DNA of 64,000 nt, from positions 9,343-73,342 of the forward strand of contig JAZUMV010000001.1 of the NCBI GenBank assembly GCA_045603785.1, read 5' to 3'. Source of the stretch: Candidatus Nanosyncoccaceae bacterium (GTDB lineage Bacteria > Patescibacteriota > Saccharimonadia > Saccharimonadales > Saccharimonadaceae). The translations under genes and the position numbers were made by a program. Below are positions 8,214 to 63,494 of this stretch, piece by piece; position 1 is the stretch's first letter, and each line of letters begins with the position of its first letter. The notes under the pieces are model-generated. The model was not told the origin of the DNA, did not search any database, and saw only the letters and a program-made list of their open reading frames with translations.

Positions 8214-9399
8214 ACATCGCTCGGATTTACTGCTCGTAGTTTTGGCGATTTTATTGATGGCGCTTGGTCTTTTGACGGTTTTTGCGGTTGGCCCGCGCGT
8301 GGCTCAGTTCGAGAATAGCCAGACGGGAAGTTCGTTTTCGGAGTCGTTTTTCTTTAAACATCATGCTTTATCTGTTGGCTTGTCTATTGTTTTTATGATT
8401 ATAGCTAGTAAGCTTCCATATGAATGGCTCGATAAGCATAGTATGAAGATTCTCGGGGTGGGCTTTTTCTTGTGCTTCTTGGTTTTTGTAATGGGCAAGA
8501 TTGGGAATCCTGGCGGATTGGTGACTTGCGACGAGGGCGCATGTCGCGCGTTTCACTTACCTGGGCTTGGTATTGGTTTTCAGCCGGTTGAAATCGTGAA
8601 GATTGGTGTGCTGTTTTATGTTTCTTGGTTGATTCAGACGCGAAAGAAGCAAGGCTCGCTCGGAACGCGTGAATTGTGGGTGCCGGTTGCAACTATTATG
8701 CTTTTGACGGGGGCTTTGGTAGCGTTTGGCTTGAAGGATTTCGGTAGTACGGTCGTGATTGCGGCGATGGTTTGCGCGATGTTATTTGTTGGCGGCGTCG
8801 AACTAAAGCAATTCGCAATTGGGCTTGGCGGTTTGGCGATTTTATCGGCGTTTTTGATCGTGACATCTCCGCATCGTATGGCGCGCTTAGCGAGCTTTGG
8901 CGATAGCTATCATGTTAAGAATGCTTTGATTTCGCTTGGTACGGGTGGTTTGTTTGGTGTTGGTATGGGCAACAGTATTCAGGCGACGGGTTATCTGCCG
9001 GAGGCCTTAAGTGATTCGATCATTGCGATTATTGGCGAGGTTACTGGTTTTATTGGTGCGATCGGTGTGATTATTTTGTTTGCTTTGATGCTAACGCGGA
9101 TGCTTTCAATCGCGAAACGTACGACCGATGGCGCGCAATCGCTATATGTAGTCGGTGTGACGGCTTGGATTTTTGCTCATGTTATAATCAACGTAGGGGG
9201 TATGATTGGCTTAATTCCGGTTAAAGGTATTACTTTACCGTTCTTGAGCTATGGTGGTACCGGCATGTTGTTTGTATCGTTTGCGCTTGGTACTGTTTTA
9301 CAAATATCGTCATGGACGAGAAGAGAAGTAGTAGATGAAGATAGTAGTAGTAGGCGGGGGCAGTGGCGGTCACGTAACGCCAGTCGTCGCCGTAGCTAG
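8206..9399 (+). CDS. ftsW: SEDS-family peptidoglycan glycosyltransferase FtsW
   Basis: Polytopic protein with GFQPVEIVKI, LPEALSDSIIAIIGE and the GLIPVKGITLPFLSYGG signature. GTG start overlaps the mraY stop by 8 nt. The basic C-terminal tail overlaps murG by 65 nt. Confidence 0.85.
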   Translation: MRKHRSDLLLVVLAILLMALGLLTVFAVGPRVAQFENSQTGSSFSESFFFKHHALSVGLSIVFMIIASKLPYEWLDKHSMKILGVGFFLCFLVFVMGKIGNPGGLVTCDEGACRAFHLPGLGIGFQPVEIVKIGVLFYVSWLIQTRKKQGSLGTRELWVPVATIMLLTGALVAFGLKDFGSTVVIAAMVCAMLFVGGVELKQFAIGLGGLAILSAFLIVTSPHRMARLASFGDSYHVKNALISLGTGGLFGVGMGNSIQATGYLPEALSDSIIAIIGEVTGFIGAIGVIILFALMLTRMLSIAKRTTDGAQSLYVVGVTAWIFAHVIINVGGMIGLIPVKGITLPFLSYGGTGMLFVSFALGTVLQISSWTRREVVDEDSSSRRGQWRSRNASRRRS

Positions 9400-13265: not shown

Positions 13266-13910
13266 ATGAAGATTCTGGGTGGCTATAATCAGGAAAGGAT
13301 GCAGAATAAGCGTTCTCGCGCCGAGAAGTCGGCCGAGTCTGATTTTGCTGCCCAGAGTGTTCGCTCGAATAATTACCGTATTGGTCGTACGATGGCTGGC
13401 GATGCCAAGAAGGCGCTCGAAGCAAAACGACGCCGCGCGAATGACCAACGCAAACGCAAGATAAAGATGACGGCGGTCATTTCTGCAACCTGTTTAGTTG
13501 CCTTGATTGCTTTGTTCTCGGTAATTCATATTACGATGAAGCAGAAAGCTGAGCGCGAGTTGGCCGAGGCTGAGGCGGCGAAGGTTTTTGTGAAGGAACC
13601 GACCGTGCCTGTGGTTGATGAGAACGTTGGCAATAACATTAGCCAGCGTGTCAAAGATTTTGTTTACGATTTGGAGAATGATTTAGCGCAATATAATATC
13701 GGGATTGATCATGTTAGTTTACCGCTCCAAAAAGCGCGCGAGTTAAGGGTGTTTATCATTGGGCGAAGCGAGTATTACAAGATGTCGCTTGATCGCGGTA
13801 GTGCTGTTCAGGCAGAAGATTTAATGCGTATGATGAAGTATTTGGACGAGGAAGAGGTTGAACCTGAGTATGTCGACTTGCGAGTTGCCGGGAAGGCATA
13901 TTATAAGTAA
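13266..13910 (+). CDS. Bitopic membrane protein, possibly FtsQ/DivIB-like (C-terminal domain only)
   Basis: Basic N-terminus and one TM (VISATCLVALIALFSVIHI). The C-terminus ...LRVFIIGRSEYYKMSLDRG...EYVDLRVAGKAYYK resembles the FtsQ end motif (yvDlR). The match is weak and rests on memory only. Confidence 0.35.
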   Translation: MKILGGYNQERMQNKRSRAEKSAESDFAAQSVRSNNYRIGRTMAGDAKKALEAKRRRANDQRKRKIKMTAVISATCLVALIALFSVIHITMKQKAERELAEAEAAKVFVKEPTVPVVDENVGNNISQRVKDFVYDLENDLAQYNIGIDHVSLPLQKARELRVFIIGRSEYYKMSLDRGSAVQAEDLMRMMKYLDEEEVEPEYVDLRVAGKAYYK

Positions 13911-13975
13911 GTTTTATTGGCTTTCTCTTGGCTCCGCTTCGCTCTTGACGCTAAGAGAAAGCTAACAAAACTTAC
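13907..13975 (+). repeat. Hairpin H1: 23-bp stem closing the conserved 22-nt core GCTCCGCTTCGCTCTTGACGCT (13931-13952)
   Basis: 5' arm gtaagttttattggctttctctt pairs with 3' arm aagagaaagctaacaaaacttac (one A-C mismatch, one G-T pair). The stop codon of the preceding CDS lies in the 5' arm. Confidence 0.85.
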
Positions 13976-14073
13976 ATCAAAGATTCTAGTAGTTAGGGAA
14001 GGGCGTAGCGCCCTATTTTATTTGGTGAGATTTTCTTAAGAGCAAATATAGAGCAGTATGGTGCAGGTGGGAA

Positions 14074-14143
14074 GGTCCTAACTTCCTGAGTCTAACAGCG
14101 TCAAGAGCGAAGCGGAGCTGTTAGGCTCAGTGGAGTTAGGACC
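14074..14143 (-). repeat. Hairpin H2: interrupted ~22-bp stem closing AGCGTCAAGAGCGAAGCGGAGC (14097-14118), the exact reverse complement of the H1 core
   Basis: 5' arm ggtcctaacttcctgagtctaac pairs with 3' arm gttaggctcagtggagttaggacc. The core is 22/22 identical to H1 in inverted orientation. Confidence 0.85.
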
Positions 14144-14168
14144 TAACTCCCCCTATCTGCACTACTAT

Positions 14169-14190
14169 GTTCGGTTTTTGTTCGGTTTTT
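14169..14190 (+). repeat. Tandem 11-nt repeat GTTCGGTTTTT x2
   Basis: gttcggttttt occurs at 14169-14179 and 14180-14190, exact copies. Confidence 0.7.
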
Positions 14191-14243
14191 CCGAGAGCGA
14201 TTCGTAGCGAGAAGAGGGGGTAGTCTGATTTGGGCCGTCAAAA

Positions 14244-14941
14244 ACAGGGGTAAAATCGTTTTTGATAAGGGTAGGGCCAGGGTAGTGTGAAAAGCCGAAT
14301 TTTGGGGGTTTTCACGGCGTGAAAACTGTCTGAAATGTGGAAAAATATGTCATAATATAGGAATTTACAGGGGTCGTTGCGGTTAGGTATTGTGGATCTG
14401 TCAAATTAAACCACTCCCCCAAGGTGTTATTTCGGTAGGGGGCGCATAATTTTACAACATTTATGCGTATATTCGAGCAACTTATTATGGTCAAACAAGT
14501 ATATATACATAACGACATTAGTATTTTGATCTATTTATGTAGATAGAAGTGCCGTGTTTATGTGTATTTAACAGATGAGTTTTATTATTTAGATGATTGT
14601 CTATTCATCCTGGGTTCTAATACTGTATAGTCGTAAAATATACATTGTGCGACATTCAAAATATGGACAAAAGACGATTGCTCATACGTCTAAGTTGGCC
14701 TAGTTTTTGGCCGCCTCGCGGATATTTTCTCGTATTTGCCCTGTCCTTGCGCTTCTATGAGTTTCTACGCCCGATTTCGATTCCATATACTATTTATGTT
14801 TATATTCGCATTATGGCGCGATTTGTAAGCTTGATGTTTTTGCGGTTCAGTCAAGGATTTCCGCAAAAAAATAACAGAGGTAGAACAGGGGTGAGAATAG
14901 GGCGAAAATATCTGGATAGTTACAGGGGTAGAACAGGGGTG
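14244..14941 (+). repeat. Iteron-like direct repeats ACAGGGGT (5 exact copies plus 1 variant), all on the same strand
   Basis: Exact 8-mers at 14244, 14367, 14885, 14922 and 14933; variant ACAGAGGT at 14874. Two 20-mers ACAGRGGTAGAACAGGGGTG lie at 14874-14893 and 14922-14941. They flank an AT-rich stretch (~14440-14660, about 28-30% GC in two hand-counted 60-nt lines). Confidence 0.7.
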
Positions 14942-16781: not shown

Positions 16782-19571
16782 CTATTTGGCGTTTTTGTTC
16801 TGATTGTTATTATGCTTGCGGTTATTGCGATTGTTGTTCCTGTTGCGCGAATTATTGCCTTGCTGAGGCTTCTTGTCTGGGGCGGAAGTAATAACTAGCT
16901 TTTCCTTAGTGTCGATTTCTGGCTCTTTTTCGCCTTTAATGTTTGGGCTTGCTATTGCGGCTTTCTCTGCAAAGAGCTTTCCTAGGTTGCGGAGGCCGTT
17001 GCCGGCATTTTCTTCTTCGCCCTGAGCAGCATTAGGAGAGATCTTTTGCTTGCGGAACTCTTGCTGCGGAGTTGGCTGGAAGGCGAAAACCGGCTTGGAC
17101 GGCTTTGGCGCGGCTTGCATCTGGGCACCGCGTTCGCCTGCGGCGCGACCAGAGTTGGATAGATCTTCCTTAAACTTATCTGCGGCACCGATGTTGTCCG
17201 CAATGAGCTTTTCGACTTCTTCCTTAGACTTAGCATAGGTATTACGAGAGTGTTCAATAATCTGTGGCGTAAGGTCGTTCGGTGGTTTTGGAATTGAAAG
17301 AGTGGTTGCGGAGAATGCATTAGCCTTTTCGCCGTTGATAATCATGGAGATGACAAAGTGGCGGTTATTGAGGTTGAGAAGGTCCTGCGCCTCAAAGATT
17401 GGCTCGAACTGTTTAGCGAGTACTGGGGCGTCGTCGGCGGAAACGCGGAAGCTGATAGTGGTACCAACGTTACCAAAGACTGCGTCACGAACGCTATCCG
17501 TCATCTGGCTCGTATACTGGTTCGCGACAGTTAGATTAAGACCGTATTTACGAGCCTCAGAAAGAATGACCGAGAAAGAATCGGTAGCGAAGTTTTGGAA
17601 CTCATCCACATAGAGATAGAATGGGCGACGATCTTCGACACGTTCGATATCTGAGCGGGACATAGCAGCGAGCTGAACCTTGGTAACCAAGAAGGAGCCG
17701 AGGAGGCCAGCGTTATCTTCGCCGATAAGACCTTTAGAAAGGTTAACGACGAGAATCTTGCCTTCGTCCATAATCTTGCGAATATTGAAGCTAGATTTTG
17801 GCTGGCCAATAATATTACGAACGATCGGGTTTGCCGTGAAGGCACCGACCTTGTTAAGAACAGGGGCGACAGATTCGGTAACCTGTTTATCGCTCCAGGA
17901 ACCGAACTCTTTCTTCCAGAACTGAAGAACTGTAACATCCGTACAATAAGTGAGGGTTTCCTTGCGGAAGTCTGCGTCGGTGAGCATGCGGGAAATATCC
18001 AAAAGTGTCGAATTTGGACGATCTAGCAATGCGAGCAAAGTGTAGCGCAAGATGTGCTCAAGACGAGGACCCCAAGAGTCGCCGAACATGCGCTTCAAAA
18101 CACCGATAACCTCAGAAGAAATATTTGGCTTACGGGCTGGATTATCTACCTCGAGTGGGTTAAAAGCCATCGGATATTGCGTATCGGCTGGGTTGAAATA
18201 GACAACATCCTTGATACGGGATTCGGGAATAAAGCGGAGGTTATCCATCGCGAGGTCGCCGTGTGGATCGATAATACAATAACCTTGGTTATGGAAAATA
18301 TCCGAGAGGCCGAAGAGGGTTAAAAGGCCTGACTTACCAGAACCGGTCTGACCGATGATATAGATATGGCGAGAGCGGTCACGGCGATACATGCCGAACT
18401 GGTTTTTGATGCCGCGGAAATCCGTAAGGCCGAAGGCAGAAATGTTCTCATCGATGGCTGGATTGCCGGTCATGAGCGGAAGCTTTGAGGGTGGCTCAGC
18501 AGTTTTACTCGAGGCCCAAACGATGTTTGGTGTTTCAACGCTGGCGTGAGGCAAGTGGTAGACGCTCGCGAGCTCAGAGACATTCAAGACGAAGCCATCA
18601 TCTGCAAACTGGCGTTCCTTGTATTTGTTGAGTTCGTTTTTATCGAAGGTAGCCTTGGTCATTTTAAAGCCGTTGAGAGCAGTAGAGTTGTACTGTTTGA
18701 AAGTACCAACGAGAGCCTGCATATTGAGCTTGGCGTCGATTTCTTTTTCGCCAACATAAACCAAGCGAATCTTGACCTCGTAGCCAAGTTTATCACTTTT
18801 CTCTTGCGCCTTCGAAACGCGGAGCTTATCGCGTTCGCTAAGCTCTTTCTTTACATCTTTATTGAGCTCCTCCGGCTGTTTCCACAGTGCTTCGCCGAGA
18901 CTCTTCAAAAAGTCCATGCCAAAGGATAGTTTCTTGCCGTCTTTGACGCTCTTAATCCAATCTTCGCTCTTTTTGCGCCAGTCGTCGGCGATTGGGCGAG
19001 TGAGGATCTGAATCCACATCTCTTCTCCTCCAGTAGGATTAAGCTTGGCGAGAGTTGCGGTAACACCTGCGAGCGGATCAACCTCGAAGCTGTCGAAGGT
19101 CTTAATTGGCAAGGCTTGGTCGTCAGTTAAGACAATTTCGGTGCTGTAATTGACTGGATATTTTTCGCGGCGATCGACATAGTCTTCGTTCATACGATAG
19201 ATCTGCACGCTTGGATACTGCGCATAGATCTGGCCTTCAACAAAGGACTGGAAGATTTTTGGAACCCAAACGAAGAAGCGGATCTGATTGCCAGTTGATG
19301 CAATTTCGAAGGAGAGGTGCTCCTGAACGCCGCCGGTGTTTTTAAGTTCGTTGGCATCACGCAAAATACCATGTAGGGACATGAACATTTGCTCAGCACT
19401 AAGTTCGTTTTTGTCGTTGTCTTTCGGAATTTCAAGCATCAAAAGTACGCTATCGACATTAAGAACTTTCATGCGATTGAGTTTGCGATAATTGCGTACG
19501 GTTAGGACCGCCAAAAGAGTCACGATTGGAATCCAAACGATTGGCTTAAAAAGAAAGGACAAAAGATTCAT
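16782..19571 (-). CDS. TraD/VirD4/TraG-like (type IV coupling protein family) P-loop ATPase with an N-terminal membrane anchor and a basic Asn-rich tail
   Basis: N-terminal TM is IVWIPIVTLLAVLTV. Walker A is IIGQTGSGKSG and Walker B is FYLYVDEFQNF, followed by ARKYGLNLTVANQY. The C-terminus is NNSRNRNNNRNNRKHNNNQNKNAK. Confidence 0.7.
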   Translation of the reverse strand: MNLLSFLFKPIVWIPIVTLLAVLTVRNYRKLNRMKVLNVDSVLLMLEIPKDNDKNELSAEQMFMSLHGILRDANELKNTGGVQEHLSFEIASTGNQIRFFVWVPKIFQSFVEGQIYAQYPSVQIYRMNEDYVDRREKYPVNYSTEIVLTDDQALPIKTFDSFEVDPLAGVTATLAKLNPTGGEEMWIQILTRPIADDWRKKSEDWIKSVKDGKKLSFGMDFLKSLGEALWKQPEELNKDVKKELSERDKLRVSKAQEKSDKLGYEVKIRLVYVGEKEIDAKLNMQALVGTFKQYNSTALNGFKMTKATFDKNELNKYKERQFADDGFVLNVSELASVYHLPHASVETPNIVWASSKTAEPPSKLPLMTGNPAIDENISAFGLTDFRGIKNQFGMYRRDRSRHIYIIGQTGSGKSGLLTLFGLSDIFHNQGYCIIDPHGDLAMDNLRFIPESRIKDVVYFNPADTQYPMAFNPLEVDNPARKPNISSEVIGVLKRMFGDSWGPRLEHILRYTLLALLDRPNSTLLDISRMLTDADFRKETLTYCTDVTVLQFWKKEFGSWSDKQVTESVAPVLNKVGAFTANPIVRNIIGQPKSSFNIRKIMDEGKILVVNLSKGLIGEDNAGLLGSFLVTKVQLAAMSRSDIERVEDRRPFYLYVDEFQNFATDSFSVILSEARKYGLNLTVANQYTSQMTDSVRDAVFGNVGTTISFRVSADDAPVLAKQFEPIFEAQDLLNLNNRHFVISMIINGEKANAFSATTLSIPKPPNDLTPQIIEHSRNTYAKSKEEVEKLIADNIGAADKFKEDLSNSGRAAGERGAQMQAAPKPSKPVFAFQPTPQQEFRKQKISPNAAQGEEENAGNGLRNLGKLFAEKAAIASPNIKGEKEPEIDTKEKLVITSAPDKKPQQGNNSRNRNNNRNNRKHNNNQNKNAK

Positions 19572-19618
19572 GCTTATATTATACCATATTTAAACGTTAG
19601 TTTTAAGCCTGCTTCATA

Positions 19619-19647
19619 TTGACAAGATATGCTAAAAATGGTATAAT
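19619..19647 (+). promoter_or_regulatory. Consensus sigma70 promoter TTGACA-17-(TGg)TATAAT
   Basis: TTGACA 19619-19624, 17-nt spacer ending in TGG, TATAAT 19642-19647. It lies ~85 nt upstream of ATG 19733. Confidence 0.7.
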
Positions 19648-19732
19648 ATAGGCGTAGTTCGGTGCTTGCATTGAGCTAAGTATGCTACGCGCGGCAATAT
19701 AGCGCGAACTCTTCGGAGTTGGAGGAACTAAG

Positions 19733-30733: not shown

Positions 30734-30887
30734 AATATGGCTCCTTCTCTCCCGAAGTCCATCGGGTGCTGAGATGTGTAGGTTCATACAACGCGTTCTT
30801 TTTGCGAACCACTCCTTTTTATATATCTAGAGTGAATTAAAGAACGTTAGATTTAATCACCGAAACAGTGATGCGATCAATGCGCAT

Positions 30888-30916
30888 ATTATAGCATATT
30901 TGAACTCAAATGTCAA
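30888..30916 (-). promoter_or_regulatory. Perfect sigma70 consensus promoter TTGACA-17-TATAAT driving the 29597-30733 gene
   Basis: On the minus strand: TTGACA (30916-30911), 17-nt spacer, TATAAT (30893-30888). This leaves a ~150-nt 5' UTR. Confidence 0.7.
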
Positions 30917-34888: not shown

Positions 34889-34910
34889 AGTGGTTCTATT
34901 GTAGCAAAAT

Positions 34911-34939
34911 TGACAAAAAGTGTAAAGTGTGGTATAATG
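34911..34939 (+). promoter_or_regulatory. Perfect sigma70 consensus promoter TTGACA-17-(TGg)TATAAT with no downstream CDS
   Basis: TTGACA 34911-34916, 17-nt spacer, TATAAT 34934-34939. It points toward the 3' end of the pilin operon. Confidence 0.65.
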
Positions 34940-35028: not shown

Positions 35029-35634
35029 CTATTGGTTGTCGCCACAGTAGACGGCGCCACCTTCGAGTTGGTACTCTAGCGAGATATTTGCTTCGCCATC
35101 TAAGTAATCCGTAGTGCCTTCATTTCCACTACATTTTGAATGAATGCGATAAAGGATGCTGTGAGCTTTTTCGGTTAATATTAAAACCTCATATGTACGA
35201 GTTCGATATTCATACAAATAACCGTTTGTCGGGGCATTGTTTGATCCTACGAAAGGCATTGTAGAGTAATACATTGGAATCTTATATGGCGTTCCGTCAG
35301 GGTCGCAGAATTGGTCGCTATAACACTTCGTCTGCGCAATATGCCAAGCATCACTGGCGGGATTTGGGTCACCGTCAGACTCACTTGTGCCCATTACGTA
35401 TTTTTTAACAAAGTTGCTCACTTCTTGTGCGGTACTAGGCATTGCCCCGTTGTTGTTGCTTTGGTACTCGGTGAAAGCGCTGAGAATGCGTGCCATATCT
35501 GAACGTCTACGCGTATTGCGCTGACTCCTTTGTAACGCTGGCAATGCGATGAATACCATCAGGAAGATGAGGCCTGCAATTGCGAGGACGAGGACAACCT
35601 CAATAATTGTGAAACCTTTTTTAGATTTAGTCAT
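35029..35634 (-). CDS. Type IV pilin-like protein (paralog 1)
   Basis: Prepilin motif KKG/FTIIEV followed by the hydrophobic helix VLVLAIAGLIFLMVFIALPAL. Shared blocks QRSQRNTRRR.DMARI, DQFCDPDGTPY, and C-terminal LEGGAVYCGDNQ. Start at MTKSKKGF. Confidence 0.85.
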   Translation of the reverse strand: MTKSKKGFTIIEVVLVLAIAGLIFLMVFIALPALQRSQRNTRRRSDMARILSAFTEYQSNNNGAMPSTAQEVSNFVKKYVMGTSESDGDPNPASDAWHIAQTKCYSDQFCDPDGTPYKIPMYYSTMPFVGSNNAPTNGYLYEYRTRTYEVLILTEKAHSILYRIHSKCSGNEGTTDYLDGEANISLEYQLEGGAVYCGDNQ

Positions 35635-35647
35635 TTTTTCTCCCGTA

Positions 35648-36193
35648 TTATTGGTTGTCGCCACAGTAGATTGCTCCGCCCTCAAGAGCGTAGATTAATG
35701 TGATTTGGTTTTGCCCGGCTCCTACGAGAATATCGCCCTCTTCGTTGCCGCATTTTGCGCCACGGTTGTAATAAATCTGATGGTCAAATGTAATGTTTGC
35801 GTATTCGACGTCGTTATCGAGAGGAAATCTTGCGCTCGTGGTACCATCGTCGCCGGCGCTAGTAGGGGAGCTTCTGTAGCTAGCTGTAATGAATGAATAT
35901 GGAGTCCCGTCTGGATCAGTGAAGGCGTCGTCGTTTCCTGCCTTGATATATTTATCCACGAATCCGCCTGCCTCTTCGACTTTGGCTTTGTTTGGCATCA
36001 CGCCGTTTGCTGCCTGATAGTCATTGAACGCGCTTAGGATGCGCGCCATATCTGCGCGTCTGCGGGTGTTTCTTTGACTTCTCTGCAATGCCGGCAATGC
36101 GATGAATACCATCAAGAAGATAAGACCTGCGATTGCTAGTACGAGGACGACCTCGATGATCGTGAAGCCTTTTTTATTATTTGCTTTTGTCAT
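35648..36193 (-). CDS. Type IV pilin-like protein (paralog 2)
   Basis: MTKANNKKGFTIIEV..., FTDPDGTPY, C-terminal ALEGGAIYCGDNQ. Confidence 0.85.
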   Translation of the reverse strand: MTKANNKKGFTIIEVVLVLAIAGLIFLMVFIALPALQRSQRNTRRRADMARILSAFNDYQAANGVMPNKAKVEEAGGFVDKYIKAGNDDAFTDPDGTPYSFITASYRSSPTSAGDDGTTSARFPLDNDVEYANITFDHQIYYNRGAKCGNEEGDILVGAGQNQITLIYALEGGAIYCGDNQ

Positions 36194-36231
36194 AGCTTTT
36201 ATATAACTCCATTAAGCTTATGTTTAAGGAT

Positions 36232-36260
36232 ACTATATCATAGGATTTTCATGAGGTCAA
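36232..36260 (-). promoter_or_regulatory. Promoter TTGACC-17-TATAGT for pilin paralog 2
   Basis: On the minus strand: TTGACC (36260-36255) and TATAGT (36237-36232). The leader ...TAATGGAGTTATATAAAAGCTATG is shared with paralog 3. Confidence 0.6.
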
Positions 36261-36289
36261 AAAAGGAGCCTTTTGAGCCCCTTTGTTTT

Positions 36290-36862
36290 TTATTGATTAT
36301 CTCCGCAGTAGACAGCACCGCCTTCAAGGGCATATAGAATTGAAAAATTATTAATTCCTGCCGTTTCTTTGACGGGATTATTCTCGTTGCTGCTGCATGA
36401 ACTATTTTCGACAGCCATAATAGCGTGTTCTTTGCCAGTATCAGTGGGCAGTCCACCGCCCAAATATGACTTGCTATGATAGTATAAGAATCTATAGCTT
36501 GTTCCGTCGGGATCACAGAATTGGTCAGAGCAATTTCCATCCTTATAATAGCCATTTCTAGAACTGTCGAAAGTGTAGCTATTGTCTCCGATGATGTATC
36601 TTTGGACTAGATCGTCAGTATTAATCGTTGCCCATGAATCACTGCTAGCCTCTTTAATCCATGGCATTTTGCCGGTGTTCGATTGATAATCGGTAATTGC
36701 TGTAATGATTCTCGCCATATCCTGCCTGCGACGAGTATTGCGCTGAGAGCGTTGCAATGCTGGCAATGCGATGAATACCATCAAGAAGATAAGACCTGCG
36801 ATTGCGAGTACTAAGACAACTTCAATAATCGTGAAGCCTTTTTTATTATTTGTTTTTGTCAT
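36290..36862 (-). CDS. Type IV pilin-like protein (paralog 3)
   Basis: MTKTNNKKGFTIIEV..., DQFCDPDGTSY, C-terminal ALEGGAVYCGDNQ. Confidence 0.85.
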   Translation of the reverse strand: MTKTNNKKGFTIIEVVLVLAIAGLIFLMVFIALPALQRSQRNTRRRQDMARIITAITDYQSNTGKMPWIKEASSDSWATINTDDLVQRYIIGDNSYTFDSSRNGYYKDGNCSDQFCDPDGTSYRFLYYHSKSYLGGGLPTDTGKEHAIMAVENSSCSSNENNPVKETAGINNFSILYALEGGAVYCGDNQ

Positions 36863-36904
36863 AGCTTTTATATAACTCCATTATTTAAGCTTATGCTTAA
36901 TGGC

Positions 36905-44921: not shown

Positions 44922-44950
44922 TTGAAATGTTGAGATGAATAGCTTAGTAT
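44922..44950 (+). promoter_or_regulatory. Promoter-like TTGAAA-17-TAGTAT
   Basis: TTGAAA 44922-44927, 17-nt spacer, TAGTAT 44945-44950. Confidence 0.4.
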
Positions 44951-44956
44951 AAGAGA

Positions 44957-45401
44957 TGTATACGAAATCTCGTATAGGACATTAGGAGTTTACGCTAGCT
45001 GGCTGCAACTTCGACATCTAAGCTTATGCACAACCCGGCAATTCCAGGCATATTTGAGTTCGAACCTATCCTTAATATGGGCACGCCTGCCGAGTAGTGG
45101 CGAGCGAAAAAGTAGGCTTTTATAGCCAAGTGCTCAGGCGAATACCGAAATTCAGGCTACAGTGAAAATCGAGTTCTTTCAATTTGGCCACGCCACGGGT
45201 GGCCACCTTTCTGGCGGCCAATGTTGGAAATCTATGAGCTTTTCTCTTGGGTAAGAGAAAGCTATCGATCAACCTCTTGGTCATAGAATCGTCCCTTGTG
45301 GGACACATTTCCAAAAGCATCCAGTCACCACCAAATTTAATGTCCAAACCTAAGCTAGCTAGCATTGCTCCCCCGCCCCCGGCAACAGTCGGGGGCTTTT
45401 T
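44957..45401 (+). ncRNA. Candidate ~445-nt noncoding transcript (unclassified)
   Basis: Bounded by the 44922 promoter-like element and a strong terminator (gcccccg-gcaacagt-cgggggc plus ttttt, 45375-45401). No plus-strand ORF of 60 aa or more. Contains hairpins tggccac/gtggcca and the core-less stem at 45237-45263. Confidence 0.4.
45237..45263 (+). repeat. Core-less paralog of the hairpin H1 stem (agcttttctctt-GGGT-aagagaaagct)
   Basis: It shares gcttt(t)ctcttg and aagagaaagcta with the inner stem of H1 (13919-13964). The loop is 4 nt instead of the 22-nt core. Confidence 0.6.
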
Positions 45402-45409
45402 CATGGTTC

Positions 45410-45488
45410 CTCGTTAGCTGTTTTAGTCTCACTCCTTAGCTCCACTTCGTTCTTGACGCTAAGGAGTAAGACTAAAACGGCTAACGAG
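45410..45488 (+). repeat. Hairpin H3: 29-bp stem closing core GCTCCACTTCGTTCTTGACGCT (45439-45460)
   Basis: 5' arm ctcgttagctgttttagtctcactcctta pairs with 3' arm taaggagtaagactaaaacggctaacgag (one G-T pair, one C-A mismatch). Confidence 0.85.
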
Positions 45489-45570: not shown

Positions 45571-45649
45571 GCTAATTGCAACTTGACTTTATCTCTCAGC
45601 GTCAAGAACGTAGTGGAGCTGAGAGATAAAGCTCAAGCTTGCAATTAGC
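45571..45649 (-). repeat. Hairpin H4: interrupted ~21-bp stem closing AGCGTCAAGAACGTAGTGGAGC (45598-45619), the inverted core (21/22 versus H3)
   Basis: 5' arm gctaattgcaacttgactttatctctc pairs with 3' arm gagagataaagctcaagcttgcaattagc (11 bp, internal loop, 10 bp). Confidence 0.85.
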
Positions 45650-45715
45650 TTATTACGATATTATAGTTTCCATTACGAAGCATTCGCTTTGAACTTTACA
45701 AGGGAGGTTTTATGC

Positions 45716-57095: not shown

Positions 57096-57707
57096 TTAAC
57101 TATTATCTACACAATAGGCTGCCCCACCCTCCAAGACATATCTTAGAGCGAAGTCATTGGCGCCATCGGTTGCTATAACCTGTGCATTTGGGTTATCATG
57201 GTCGCATTTTGCGTGAGTGTGTGCGAAGATGATGTGGCTAGTTCTCGCGATTTCTGCAAGGTTGAATACCCAAACACTGCCTGCAACTTGGTATTCGTGA
57301 TCGAATTTATATGCAAGGACATATGGCGTGCCGTCTGGATCGCTGAATTGATCGCCGCAAGATTCGTATGTGATGTTTGGCGAATAAGTATAGTCTCCGA
57401 TTTCTACGTTCTTTTTAATATTTGTACAGCTTTCGTCGATATAATGCGAGATGAACCCTTCGTCTAATTCTAAGTCTGCTGGATTGGTGCTATTTTTGAC
57501 TTTGTTTCGGAATGGAAGTCGGTTATTTACTGCTTGATAATTAGTCGTAGCGGTAGCTATTCTTGCCATGTCCGAACGGCGGCGTGTATTTCTTTGGCTG
57601 CGCTGTAATGCCGGCAAGGCAATAAAGACCATCAAGAAGATAAGTCCTGCTATGGCTAGAACCAGTACAACTTCGATTATTGTAAAGCCGTGCCGGTTAT
57701 TACGCAT
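57096..57707 (-). CDS. Type IV pilin-like protein (paralog 4, unlinked)
   Basis: MRNNRHG/FTIIEVVLVLAIAGLIFLMVFIALPALQRSQRNTRRRSDMARI is identical to the cluster paralogs through this region. It also has DQFSDPDGTPY and the C-terminal LEGGAAYCVDNS. Confidence 0.85.
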   Translation of the reverse strand: MRNNRHGFTIIEVVLVLAIAGLIFLMVFIALPALQRSQRNTRRRSDMARIATATTNYQAVNNRLPFRNKVKNSTNPADLELDEGFISHYIDESCTNIKKNVEIGDYTYSPNITYESCGDQFSDPDGTPYVLAYKFDHEYQVAGSVWVFNLAEIARTSHIIFAHTHAKCDHDNPNAQVIATDGANDFALRYVLEGGAAYCVDNS

Positions 57708-57709
57708 GT

Positions 57710-59563
57710 TTAGTCCTTCTTGGTTAATGCTTCAGTATTGGCGATTAGCCTTTGGCGGAAGCCTTCGCGAGCGGCGTCGGCGTTATTATTGTCACCCTTC
57801 CAAGCATTTAATGCTGGATCTTGCAGAGCGCGAGCGAAGCTGAAAGTGACTGGCCATGGGAACGGGCCATTGTTTGTGACTTCCTGGAGATTCTCAGTTG
57901 CTTGCTCGACGCTTTGACCACCGCTTAGGAAGACGACGCCCGCAAGTTTTTCTGGGACATGCTGTTTGAGAACATTGGCGGTAGCTTTACCGACTTCTTG
58001 TGGCGTAGACTGAACTGCTTGCTTTTTGCCGGCTAGAACCATATTAACCTTAAGAATGCAGCCTTCGAGATCGATAGCCTTCTTGCTGAGCTCTTCAAAT
58101 AGAACATCAAGAATTTTGCTGGTCGTGTCGATATTCTGCTGAAGCGTGTAATCTCCGTCGTAAACCAATTCTGGTTCAACGATTGGAACGATATTGGCGT
58201 TCTGACAATCTAGGGCGTACTGCGCGAGAATTTCGGCGTTCTTGCGAATTGCCATATCGCTTGGGCTATGGTCGGTTAACTCAAAAGCGGCACGCCACTT
58301 AGCGAAGCGAGCGCCCATATTGTAGTATTCTTTGAGTCTGTCTGGGAGCCCATCGAGGCCTTGAGTATATTTTTCATCGGAGTTTTCGAAGTTGACGAGG
58401 CCTTGGTCTACCTTGATGCCGGCGATGATGCCTTTGTTTCGGAGGTAGGAAACGAAATCTTTGCCATCGTCTGCTTTCTGACGAGCGGTTTCATCGAAGA
58501 GGATAACGCCACTAACGTATTTTTCGATGTCTGGGGTTGTGAAGAAGAGGTTGCGATAGTCGCGGCGATGCTGCTCATCGTCCGGAATATTCATGCTCTC
58601 GAATTTCTTGTGAATAGAGCCACCAGATTCATCGGCGGCGAGAATGCCCTTGTTTGGTGCAAGGAGTTTCTTTGCATTTTCTTCGATTTCGGTCATTTTG
58701 CGTTGTTCCTCGTGTTTTTCTACTCTTTCAATGAGATATTCTTCGTCGATAACTTCCTGGTCGAGCTTGGAAAGATTGCTGGTGCTGCCAAGGCGAGATT
58801 CCTCGACATTCTTGCGAGCGAGCATCAAGCAGCGGCTGACGGTTTTGCCCTTGAGGATTGCGCCAAAAACAGTCGCGGCGACGGTAAGGTTAATGCTGAG
58901 GCGTGTAAGTAAATCTTTTGAGTTAACATTAAGCGGAGCTGGAATACGACGGCCTTGGAAGATGATGTATTTGTCTGTAATCGTGACGGGATTCTTGGCT
59001 GGATAGTTAAGCTTAGTGTCCGTCAGAATGAGACTGGCGCGCTGCAAAAGTTTTTGCATATATTTGGCGTTTTGATTGCTGCGCTTGTTGATAAAGATTG
59101 CGAGGCGAGTCTTCGTGTTGAGCGTGAGATACTCAAGGATCTTATTGCCAAGATTCGGCGTAATGTTGGCACTGCGATCGATATATAGCCAATCTGGGGC
59201 AGAGATTGGATTGGACCAAGCAGATTCGCGATAAGTGCTTGGGGTCAAGAACGAAATGCTATCGTCGTGGCAAAGGATGTAACGATAGTCGATTTGTGAT
59301 TCGTTGGCAAAGAATTGGCCTTCGATGAAGCGGGCTGGCGTATTGACGATTTGTGCATCAATACCAAAGCGTGTTAGGACTTCAAGACTAATGCTGGCGC
59401 CGCCATAGATTGAGGCGCGTGAATAGTATTTGCGCGAAGAATGATTAAATGGGATGTCTAGCCAGCTTACGCCATTCTGGTCTAGCTCGAATTTATTGAG
59501 ACGGTTATCCATGCGTAGATAGACGTCTTTTGTAATGTTGCCCACGATTAAGACTTTTGCCAT
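57710..59563 (-). CDS. Fusion protein: N-terminal PfkB/ribokinase-like domain plus C-terminal class I fructose-bisphosphate aldolase
   Basis: The C-terminal ~330 aa carry GILAADESGGS, GIKVDQG and the Schiff-base region CILKVNMV. The N-terminal ~290 aa carry VLIVGNITKDVY and GGASISLEVLTRFG (PfkB signature-1-like). The DTxGAGD motif appears replaced by LTVAATVFGA. Confidence 0.75.
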   Translation of the reverse strand: MAKVLIVGNITKDVYLRMDNRLNKFELDQNGVSWLDIPFNHSSRKYYSRASIYGGASISLEVLTRFGIDAQIVNTPARFIEGQFFANESQIDYRYILCHDDSISFLTPSTYRESAWSNPISAPDWLYIDRSANITPNLGNKILEYLTLNTKTRLAIFINKRSNQNAKYMQKLLQRASLILTDTKLNYPAKNPVTITDKYIIFQGRRIPAPLNVNSKDLLTRLSINLTVAATVFGAILKGKTVSRCLMLARKNVEESRLGSTSNLSKLDQEVIDEEYLIERVEKHEEQRKMTEIEENAKKLLAPNKGILAADESGGSIHKKFESMNIPDDEQHRRDYRNLFFTTPDIEKYVSGVILFDETARQKADDGKDFVSYLRNKGIIAGIKVDQGLVNFENSDEKYTQGLDGLPDRLKEYYNMGARFAKWRAAFELTDHSPSDMAIRKNAEILAQYALDCQNANIVPIVEPELVYDGDYTLQQNIDTTSKILDVLFEELSKKAIDLEGCILKVNMVLAGKKQAVQSTPQEVGKATANVLKQHVPEKLAGVVFLSGGQSVEQATENLQEVTNNGPFPWPVTFSFARALQDPALNAWKGDNNNADAAREGFRQRLIANTEALTKKD

Positions 59564-60365: not shown

Positions 60366-60383
60366 CTTTTGCTCTCTGCTGCA

Positions 60384-60412
60384 TTGACAAAAACGCCTAA
60401 ATCTGATATAAT
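60384..60412 (+). promoter_or_regulatory. Perfect sigma70 consensus promoter TTGACA-17-TATAAT
   Basis: TTGACA 60384-60389, 17-nt spacer, TATAAT 60407-60412. A ~145-nt structured leader follows. Confidence 0.7.
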
Positions 60413-63340: not shown

Positions 63341-63494
63341 TAGCTTTCCTCCTAGAATAAGGGACATACCTCTATATGCGAACAATGAATCTCTTCATTT
63401 ATAAAGGTACGTCCGTAAAGTATTTTCCTTTCCGGATATGCTTATATTATACCATAATTAGTGCAAAAAGTCAATCCGGATTTGGGTTAAATAT

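Follow-up and report, generated by a model that had tools for sequence, protein, structure and literature searches.

In a 64,000-nt stretch from a Candidatus Nanosyncoccaceae bacterium (positions 9,343 to 73,342 of contig JAZUMV010000001.1, assembly GCA_045603785.1; hereafter, the window), four long hairpins form one repeat family. They are arranged as two pairs, H1 and H2 at locus 1 and H1' and H2' at locus 2, and each carries at its tip a copy of a 22-nt core, GCTCCGCTTCGCTCTTGACGCT. Relatives have gained or lost individual units, which can also occur singly; the stems co-vary, and the loop is under constraint. We lean towards reading the hairpins as copies of a lineage-restricted structured repeat resembling the repetitive extragenic palindromes (REP) and the miniature inverted-repeat transposable elements (MITEs), in which a factor whose gene lies elsewhere would read the apex on the folded single strand, the arms would be kept complementary by copying or by selection, and the effects on neighboring genes would be by-products. 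The hairpin pairs are probably not DNA switches.

Apex and stems of the hairpins

Exact matches to the core are found twice at locus 1, once on each strand (Table 1), with their centers 166 nt apart. This bears out an earlier note on the window, which had described two long hairpins with loops that are exact reverse complements over 22 of 22 positions. Locus 2 is a second, equally built pair, in which the + and - copies of the core carry two and three mismatches, respectively, and the centers are 159 nt apart. In 100 dinucleotide-preserving shuffles of the window, no core match was obtained. A hairpin scan of the window gave seven long hairpins, and all of those with a loop of at least 17 nt (n = 4) have the core. 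The unpaired loop is 17 nt long, as the first two and the last three bases of the core pair together, and the apex consists of this loop closed by A-T, G-C, and C-G pairs. The complete unit is a quasi-palindrome of 70-105 bp with an asymmetric apex. The H1 stem has the previously given length of 23 bp, including two non-Watson-Crick positions, and the previously given limits, while that of H2, earlier placed at 14074-14143 with ~22 bp, reaches ~40 bp if bulges are included (~26 bp as first described). The left arm of H1 covers the TAA stop of a 214-aa open reading frame (ORF214, 13266-13910); the start of the unit, given in the earlier note as inside this stop codon, is one base ahead of it, on the third base of the last sense codon. 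Folded as RNA, the region 13895-14160 has an energy of -112.9 kcal/mol (z = -7.8), and the minimum-energy fold of locus 1 keeps both local hairpins and leaves the cores unpaired with each other. As DNA, the four hairpins reach z-scores of -5.7 to -10.1 on either strand, and all fold energies (RNA and DNA, both loci, both strands) lie at z = -5.7 to -11.2 against shuffled controls.

Nine copies were aligned by anchoring on the core, which gave a gap-free alignment of 12 stem pairs beyond the three closing pairs. Standard pairs are formed in 96.7% of the stem cells, in comparison with 70% in shuffled controls and 33-50% when the partners are slid, and 12 of the 15 stem pairs show changes on both sides. 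For instance, between the H2' of the window and its ortholog in a relative (contig L034), three adjacent changes are mirrored across the arms (ATCTCTC/GAGAGAT versus ATTCTTC/GAAGAAT). For the H2 of locus 1, two alleles were distinguished, W in the window and M in the contigs L031 and L032. From the 3' half of the terminator that separates the locus-1 hairpins (~14015 on) to the end of H2, these are 50-57% identical, versus 90-97% in the flanks; each allele nevertheless keeps its two arms complementary, a one-base indel in the outer stem being mirrored too, and the core within the divergent block is identical at 24 of 25 positions. The limits of this block do not coincide with the two cores. 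A further H2 copy, in L030 (Logan contig, 2340-2420), switches exactly within the core from a W-type left arm to an M-type right one, so that its two arms fail to pair; either a crossover took place naturally in the core or the contig was assembled as a chimera. Given that a process that makes the arms symmetrical cannot maintain an asymmetric loop, the conservation of the loop needs a separate explanation, namely, recognition.

Regular variation of the loop over the ten copies is confined to two places, position 9 and the positions 6 and 12 taken together, the latter being G with C at locus 1 and A with T at locus 2. On the opposite strand, the loop has the form AGCGTCAAGA-(R-CG-N-AG-Y)-GGAGC, in which a two-pair mini-helix closes a GNA triloop. 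The string RCGNAGY is present in all ten copies with its CG kept, and the triloop is GNA in nine (GAA, GTA, or GCA) and AAA in one. The R:Y covariation is suggestive and, being one difference between locus 1 and locus 2, not a proof. The mini-hairpin is thus preserved with its closing pairs, the behavior to be looked for in an ssi- or N4-type signal. The motifs GCGAAGC and GCGGAGC overlap within the loop. Whatever the base at N, GCGNAGC is documented to form a DNA mini-hairpin of extraordinary stability, and in the promoter of the phage N4 virion RNA polymerase the mini-hairpin is GCGGAGC; such motifs are also found at the phage G4 ori and at RSF1010 ssiA (PMC13037366). The statement of the earlier note that the core resembles no described motif therefore holds with respect to Rfam only, since this known motif is contained in it. 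We also considered GAAGCGGAGCT as a relative of the N4 P2 promoter hairpin; the literature bears out the GCGGAGC mini-hairpin only, and the likeness was treated as a shared 7-nt motif.

Outside the apex, the copies have little in common. Weak similarity (p from 0 to ~0.1 depending on the pair, 500 shuffles each) connects the arms of H1, H1', and H2', which have in common a GCTTT-TCTCTY tract beside the core; H1 and H1' can be aligned lengthwise, with a 3-nt indel mirrored in both arms. By the same shuffle comparisons, the H2 arms have no detectable relation to those of the other copies, and across all non-orthologous arm comparisons p ranges from 0/500 shuffles to 0.54, most pairs being not significant. 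The distal arm ends differ by copy (GTAAGTTTTA, CTCGTTAGCT, GCTAATTGCA, and GTGCAGG), which makes a transposase binding to conserved terminal repeats unlikely. Two other origins were set aside. The first, that one arm is ancestral flank and the other arm its inverted copy made on insertion, was prompted by GTTTTATTGGCT after the stop codon, which resembles the relatives L025 and L027; it is weakened by the lengthwise similarity of H1 and H1' with its mirrored indel, from which those arms at least probably belong to the element. The second, that the core was inserted into the loop of a pre-existing hairpin, is at odds with the relatives, which have no 23-bp hairpin at that place. As a separate observation, the core of the W-allele H2 is flanked by GTCTAAC and GTTAGGC (14090-14125), with a second CCTAAC/GTTAGG pair further out, and these are absent from the other copies.

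Occurrence in relatives and genomic setting

At locus 1, six contigs (L023-L028, ORF214 70-79% identical) keep the gene order pyk-pgk-ORF214 and have neither the core nor a long hairpin. Instead, a TAG stop is followed by ~50 nt with a small GGGCT..AGCCC hairpin (then TAT), leading directly to the conserved GTTCGGTTTTTGTTCGGTTTTT / GTTCGGTTTTT. Closer relatives (L030, L031, and L032, ~95% DNA identity) have both hairpins, with their order and orientation unchanged from the window, and L029, a contig of the same close-strain kind, ends 7 nt past the stop codon, at the foot of H1. The complete identity of the two loops is true of the window strain and specific to it, with 21/22 positions in L031 and L032 and 19/22 in L030. 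Between H1 and H2 lies the terminator reported by the earlier note (GGGCG..CGCCC-TAT). It resembles the small terminator hairpin of the relatives without long hairpins and is probably the ancestral one, which makes H1 and H2 best understood as two additions made separately, one to each side of it. The stop codon of ORF214 is TAA in the H1-bearing strains, where it lies within the stem (GTAAG/CTTAC), and TAG in all six hairpin-free relatives.

At locus 2, H2' is present both in a 98% identical relative (L033) and in L034, whose neighboring gene is 76% identical. L034 has no H1' and only one core, which indicates that the basic unit is one hairpin and not a pair. Presence/absence polymorphism at orthologous sites, as expected of a MITE, is thus found at both loci, and the conservation of the structure in relatives that the earlier note had looked to is borne out by L030-L032 at locus 1 and L033-L034 at locus 2. 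It was also observed that contigs of relatives break at the H1 foot (L029), in the H2' left arm (start of L033), and at a GTTCGG repeat (end of L023); the hairpins and this repeat may fragment short-read assemblies of the lineage.

Further copies were sought in public collections. A scan with GCTCCNCTNCGNTCTTGACGCT retrieved 8 stretches in 185,579 GTDB representative genomes, 14 in JGI metagenomes, and 0 in IMG/VR, and around none of these was a local palindrome found, so that no true further copy was among them. The matches in Ktedonobacteraceae fall in an apparent coding region, and the sole match identical to the window core is on a GC-rich soil contig, upstream of a 158-aa ORF, with a TTGACG placed like a -35 box. 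We have taken these matches as chance. The search for copies in palindromes or in inverted pairs, as proposed in the earlier note, hence gave none beyond the two loci and their orthologs. A covariance model matched the four window copies and their orthologs only, and blastn of the locus against phage and plasmid collections gave nothing. Considering a possible guide or template RNA, 9-11-mers of the core were counted in the window; they occur at chance level only, with none in the neighboring non-coding regions. In the searchable literature, no description of such an element in Saccharibacteria was found.

The window is ordinary chromosome with a GC content of ~46%, and its UvrB is 93% identical to proteins named Candidatus Saccharibacteria. 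The GC skew is positive along the whole length and gives no sign of a replication origin or terminus. Housekeeping genes are present (mraW, a penicillin-binding protein gene, mraY, ftsW, murG, pyk, pgk, topA, pth, der, gltX, uvrA, and uvrB), along with pilin-like genes, a GH25 lysozyme, and a TrwB-like ATPase. Among the window ORFs scanned, several of which have no family, there is no recombinase, transposase, reverse transcriptase, or HUH protein, in line with what the earlier note had seen for the first three; a RAYT (Y1) gene, an integrase, an attI site, a cognate primase, and a single-subunit polymerase are likewise absent from the 64 kb. Neither locus reaches the Rfam threshold, which in the window is passed only by two tRNAs; at E <= 10 the hairpins match microRNA-precursor models only, which are generic and far under threshold. 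The transcription context of the two loci is not alike. H1 lies inside the pyk-pgk-ORF214 transcript, right after the stop codon and ahead of the terminator, and H2 lies past the terminator. H1' and H2' have a strong terminator (45375-45396 plus T-run) on one side and the next gene's promoter on the other, and no promoter was detected in the locus-2 segment from core to core.

Table 1. Hairpins, core copies, and adjoining signals at the two loci (window positions)
Feature	Position	Strand or form	Remarks
H1, locus 1	13907..13975	core in C orientation	DNA fold -18.5 kcal/mol, z = -6.5
Core copy 1, GCTCCGCTTCGCTCTTGACGCT	13931..13952	+	unpaired loop 13933-13949
Intrinsic terminator of pyk-pgk-ORF214 operon	14000..14023	+	hairpin 14000-14014, then T-run
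H2, locus 1	14061..14162	bulged, ~40 bp, core reversed	DNA fold -31.4 kcal/mol, z = -7.6
Core copy 2	14097..14118	-	+ strand reads AGCGTCAAGA-GCGAAGC-GGAGC
H1', locus 2	45410..45488	31-bp stem, core in C orientation	z = -8.8
Core copy 3, GCTCCACTTCGTTCTTGACGCT	45439..45460	+	A6/T12 variant
H2', locus 2	45571..45649	~30 bp, core reversed	z = -9.2; right arm has the -35 box of the downstream promoter
Core copy 4	45598..45619	-	+ strand reads AGCGTCAAGA-ACGTAGT-GGAGC
Promoter-like site TTGCAA-17-TATAGT of metallo-beta-lactamase-fold gene (ATG 45716)	45639..45667	+	-35 box inside H2' right arm; conserved in L034

Several other features were observed near the loci or elsewhere in the window. An ORF-free unit of ~440 nt (44922-45402) lies upstream of H1'. 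It has a promoter-like TTGAAA-17-TAGTAT as well as a strong terminator, and it is shared with L034 (3940-4425) as a conserved unit, including an internal hairpin with a compensatory change. It contains the 23S-like string GAGTAGTGGCGAGCGAAA, has no Rfam match at E <= 10, and is probably an undescribed non-coding RNA. Within it, the hairpin GCTTTTCTCTT-GGGT-AAGAGAAAGC (45240-45266) has nearly the stem of the locus-1 H1, with a 4-nt loop in place of the 17-nt core, and both of its arms have changed together in L034. Beyond H2, a conserved non-coding region (14166-14480) common to the relatives L023-L032 opens with a tandem of two GTTCGGTTTTT and contains a TGTCATAATAT box and a CCCCC..GGGGG hairpin; it has no Rfam match and possibly represents a gene for a small RNA or else a regulatory sequence. 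The pilin-like genes, with an N-terminal methylation motif, form a paralogous array (35029-36883) with a fourth copy 21 kb off (57096-57734), and show up as the repeat families D1-D3 and D6. Finally, the promoter-like boxes ATTGACAA..TATAAT and ATGCTTATATTATACCATATTTA recur in intergenic positions (19570-19653, 30880-30902, 34909-34938, 60383-60412, and 63438-63460).

Possible explanations

Among the three readings put forward in the earlier note, a new REP/MITE-like family fits best, considering the four copies at two loci, their presence and absence, and the single unpaired copy in L034. It also accounts for the location between genes, right after a stop codon, and for the stop codon and promoter box that the units have donated. 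As the apex is the conserved part of the unit, it would be the part that is recognized. Moreover, both orientations are open to a unit, and two oppositely placed units that share an intergenic region will therefore have reverse-complementary loops, with no need of a dedicated function in pairing or inversion. We infer an action as single-stranded DNA rather than RNA, a cognate protein, and a step that renews the arms. In this scheme, a factor with its gene outside the window would act on the unit as a folded single strand, which is most likely DNA, and would read the apex rather than the ends. The arms would be free to change as long as they stay complementary, and complementarity may be renewed by copying one arm from the other, either through template switching at the quasi-palindrome or through snap-back synthesis; alternatively, slow compensatory selection alone may suffice. 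Template switching at quasi-palindromes is an established process by which one arm is copied from the other. The mirrored indels and the near-perfect stems of diverged copies would be expected if an arm is periodically copied, and long-term selection for pairing could give the same picture. Host effects would be incidental and would comprise a strong hairpin in a 3' untranslated region (UTR) along with the ORF214 stop codon and a promoter -35 box.

Several observations weigh against this reading. The copies examined are four and lie at two loci only. Because the core has no true copies in the collections searched, the case for mobility rests on presence and absence at two sites, and we know of no cognate enzyme. 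Both loci have the same arrangement with nearly equal spacing (166 and 159 nt), which independent insertion does not predict. The direct repeats flanking the units, compared by eye, are weak, with GATATTT / GATATTA (6/7) at H2', which in L034 is GGTATTA / GATATTA, ATGGTTC / ATGATCT (5/7) at H1', and at most 4/7 matches, nothing convincing, at H1 and H2. The fact that resident copies, compared between orthologs, have kept their apex is suggestive of a role in the host over that of a purely selfish element. Lastly, in a manual tally, the wobble counts on the + strand are not significantly skewed and do not tell action on DNA from action on RNA; the strand bias of G-T versus A-C mismatches, which had been tried as a test of RNA against DNA, was dropped for being not significant and confounded by GC/AT skew.

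A more far-reaching version, which we regard as quite unlikely, is that of a new mobile or self-renewing DNA palindrome set by its apex and not by its ends. Here a structure-specific enzyme would recognize the 17-nt loop with the GNA mini-hairpin in it on folded single-stranded DNA and transfer this loop together with one of the arms, after which snap-back copying would restore the other arm. Such an element would explain arms that are near-perfect within copies but different between them, the mirrored indels, the unconserved ends, and the L030 chimera joined in the core.

Among the rivals of a structured DNA repeat, a cis-acting RNA element of the host survives best, though it seems unlikely to us. 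The hairpins would then be 3'-UTR stabilizers, processing sites, or sites for a loop-binding protein, or their loops would kiss within or between transcripts. The position of H1 in its transcript, between stop codon and terminator, agrees with this, as do the co-varying stems, the very stable RNA folds, the loop conserved in orthologous copies, and the fact that several stem mismatches are G-T on the + strand. However, three of the four copies have no obvious transcript, H2 being past the terminator and H1' and H2' between terminator and promoter, and this same arrangement makes the kissing of two loops in one RNA, as suggested in the earlier note, unlikely. The copies occur in both orientations, so that an RNA loop would read differently; RNA hairpins bound by proteins do not usually have perfect stems as long as 23-40 bp; there is no Rfam match; L034, with one hairpin, does not require kissing in cis; and the minimum-energy fold leaves the cores unpaired with each other.

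It is also conceivable, though improbable, that the hairpins are initiation signals on single-stranded DNA or hairpin promoters, with the extruded apex offering the GCGAAGC/GCGGAGC mini-hairpin to a primase or an RNA polymerase, one signal per strand. RSF1010, with ssiA and ssiB, has one signal on each strand in this way. The two overlapping motifs in the loop, the first of which is preserved by the covariation, and their placement on opposite strands in the two members of a pair would suit such a role, and the same motifs are found in the phage G4 ori, RSF1010 ssiA, and the N4 promoter (PMC13037366). The likeness, however, is limited to the 7-nt motif, and the A/T variant weakens the GCGGAGC-type helix. 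In addition, the GC skew shows no origin or terminus, neither plasmid nor phage context was found, no cognate primase or single-subunit polymerase is encoded in the window, and, in the given orientation, the signals would fire toward each other.

That the cores are the inverted repeats of an invertible segment (144 bp at locus 1, 137 bp at locus 2), with the recombinase elsewhere and the locus-1 terminator switched on and off, is very improbable. The proposal, made for the 144-bp segment in the earlier note, draws on repeats that are identical at 22/22 positions around a short segment with an orientation-dependent terminator, on the same repeat at two loci, as in the regulons of a global invertase, on the greater similarity of cores within a locus than between loci, and on L030, which resembles a crossover inside the core. 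Nevertheless, a single orientation is seen in the window, L030, L031, and L032 (four assemblies), L034 has a single core at locus 2 in place of an inverted-repeat pair, and the L030 cores are merely 19/22 identical. The divergent block does not match the core-to-core segment, and the locus-2 segment has no detected promoter and the window no recombinase. Inversion leaves the hairpin arms unexplained, and flipping would destroy both hairpins, yet it is their pairing that is conserved.

Least credible is an integron attC-like site recombined as a folded single strand, with the segment between sites as a cassette: a hairpin kept with poorly conserved sequence, a size of 70-105 bp, the chimera of L030 at the core, and the boxes GTCTAAC and GTTAGGC of the W-allele H2, which match the integron inverse-core/core consensus RYYYAAC / GTTRRRY, agree with it, but the conserved part here is the apex, which in attC sites is the variable part and by which the hairpins are not attC sites, the boxes occur in the W-allele H2 only and beside the apex instead of at the stem base, the divergent block does not span from core to core, and there is no integrase, attI, or cassette ORF between the sites.

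Comparison with known systems

The genomes of Saccharibacteria and other bacteria of the candidate phyla radiation are small and streamlined; they contain few repeats and little mobile DNA, both of which have received little attention. Among these organisms, a structured repeat varying between close relatives would mark genome dynamics at the strain level, and its hairpins are a likely cause of metagenome contig breaks (two of the fetched contigs end at them). The repeat may also act as a source of regulatory parts, having supplied a stop codon, a 3'-UTR hairpin, and the -35 box of a promoter. A fixed apex on a free stem implies recognition of a single-stranded tip and possibly a copying step that renews the palindrome; if a cognate enzyme exists, it would represent a new structure-specific DNA- or RNA-binding activity.

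Several known systems share parts of this design. As in the origins of CRESS-DNA (circular, Rep-encoding single-stranded DNA) viruses and of rolling-circle plasmids, the loop is conserved and the stem conserves only its pairing, an otherwise rare pattern; unlike those origins, there is no Rep/HUH gene and no episomal context, the 17-nt loop has no recognizable nick motif, and the stems are far longer. With the invertons (Hin/Gin, Fim, and the Mpi type of Bacteroides), the hairpin pairs have in common ~20-bp inverted repeats around 140-230 bp and one repeat serving several loci, whereas here no inverted form is seen in four assemblies, a single-copy ortholog exists, and each repeat tips its own hairpin, which inversion breaks. 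The GCGNAGC mini-hairpins of G4 ori, RSF1010 ssiA, and the N4 promoter are matched by GCGAAGC overlapping GCGGAGC, with a closing pair that co-varies and a middle base that is free, as the tolerance of the motif predicts; what is shared is the 7-nt motif only, and not the functional or genomic context.

The closest parallels are the REP sequences, with their mosaic elements (BIME) and hairpin-forming doublets (REPIN), which in Proteobacteria are accompanied by RAYT transposases (Y1 HUH), whose genes the REP sequences often flank. Both are short, non-coding hairpin repeats in intergenic regions, often behind stop codons and frequently in inverted pairs, which are lineage-specific and variable between strains; REP sequences are recognized as folded single strands, as the units of the window would be. 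REP sequences, however, conserve the stem and a 5' GTAG, while here only the apex is conserved and no GTAG is shared; the stems are 23-40 bp instead of ~10 bp; four copies are found in 64 kb, where REP copies number tens to hundreds per genome, all extragenic; and no RAYT gene is seen within the 64-kb window. As for MITEs with long terminal inverted repeats (Correia, ERIC/IRU, RUP, and Nezha, among others), the small, non-autonomous insertions, long hairpins, and insertion polymorphism are alike, and so are the ability to donate promoter boxes, terminators, and stop codons and the possible short direct repeats at two copies. Their termini, which are the transposase sites, are shared and their middle varies, in contrast to the hairpins of the window, where the termini are unrelated or barely related, the center is invariant, and target duplications are unconvincing. 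The element thus works most like REP/REPIN or a MITE, yet departs from both in what defines them, the conserved GTAG stem of the former and the conserved termini of the latter.

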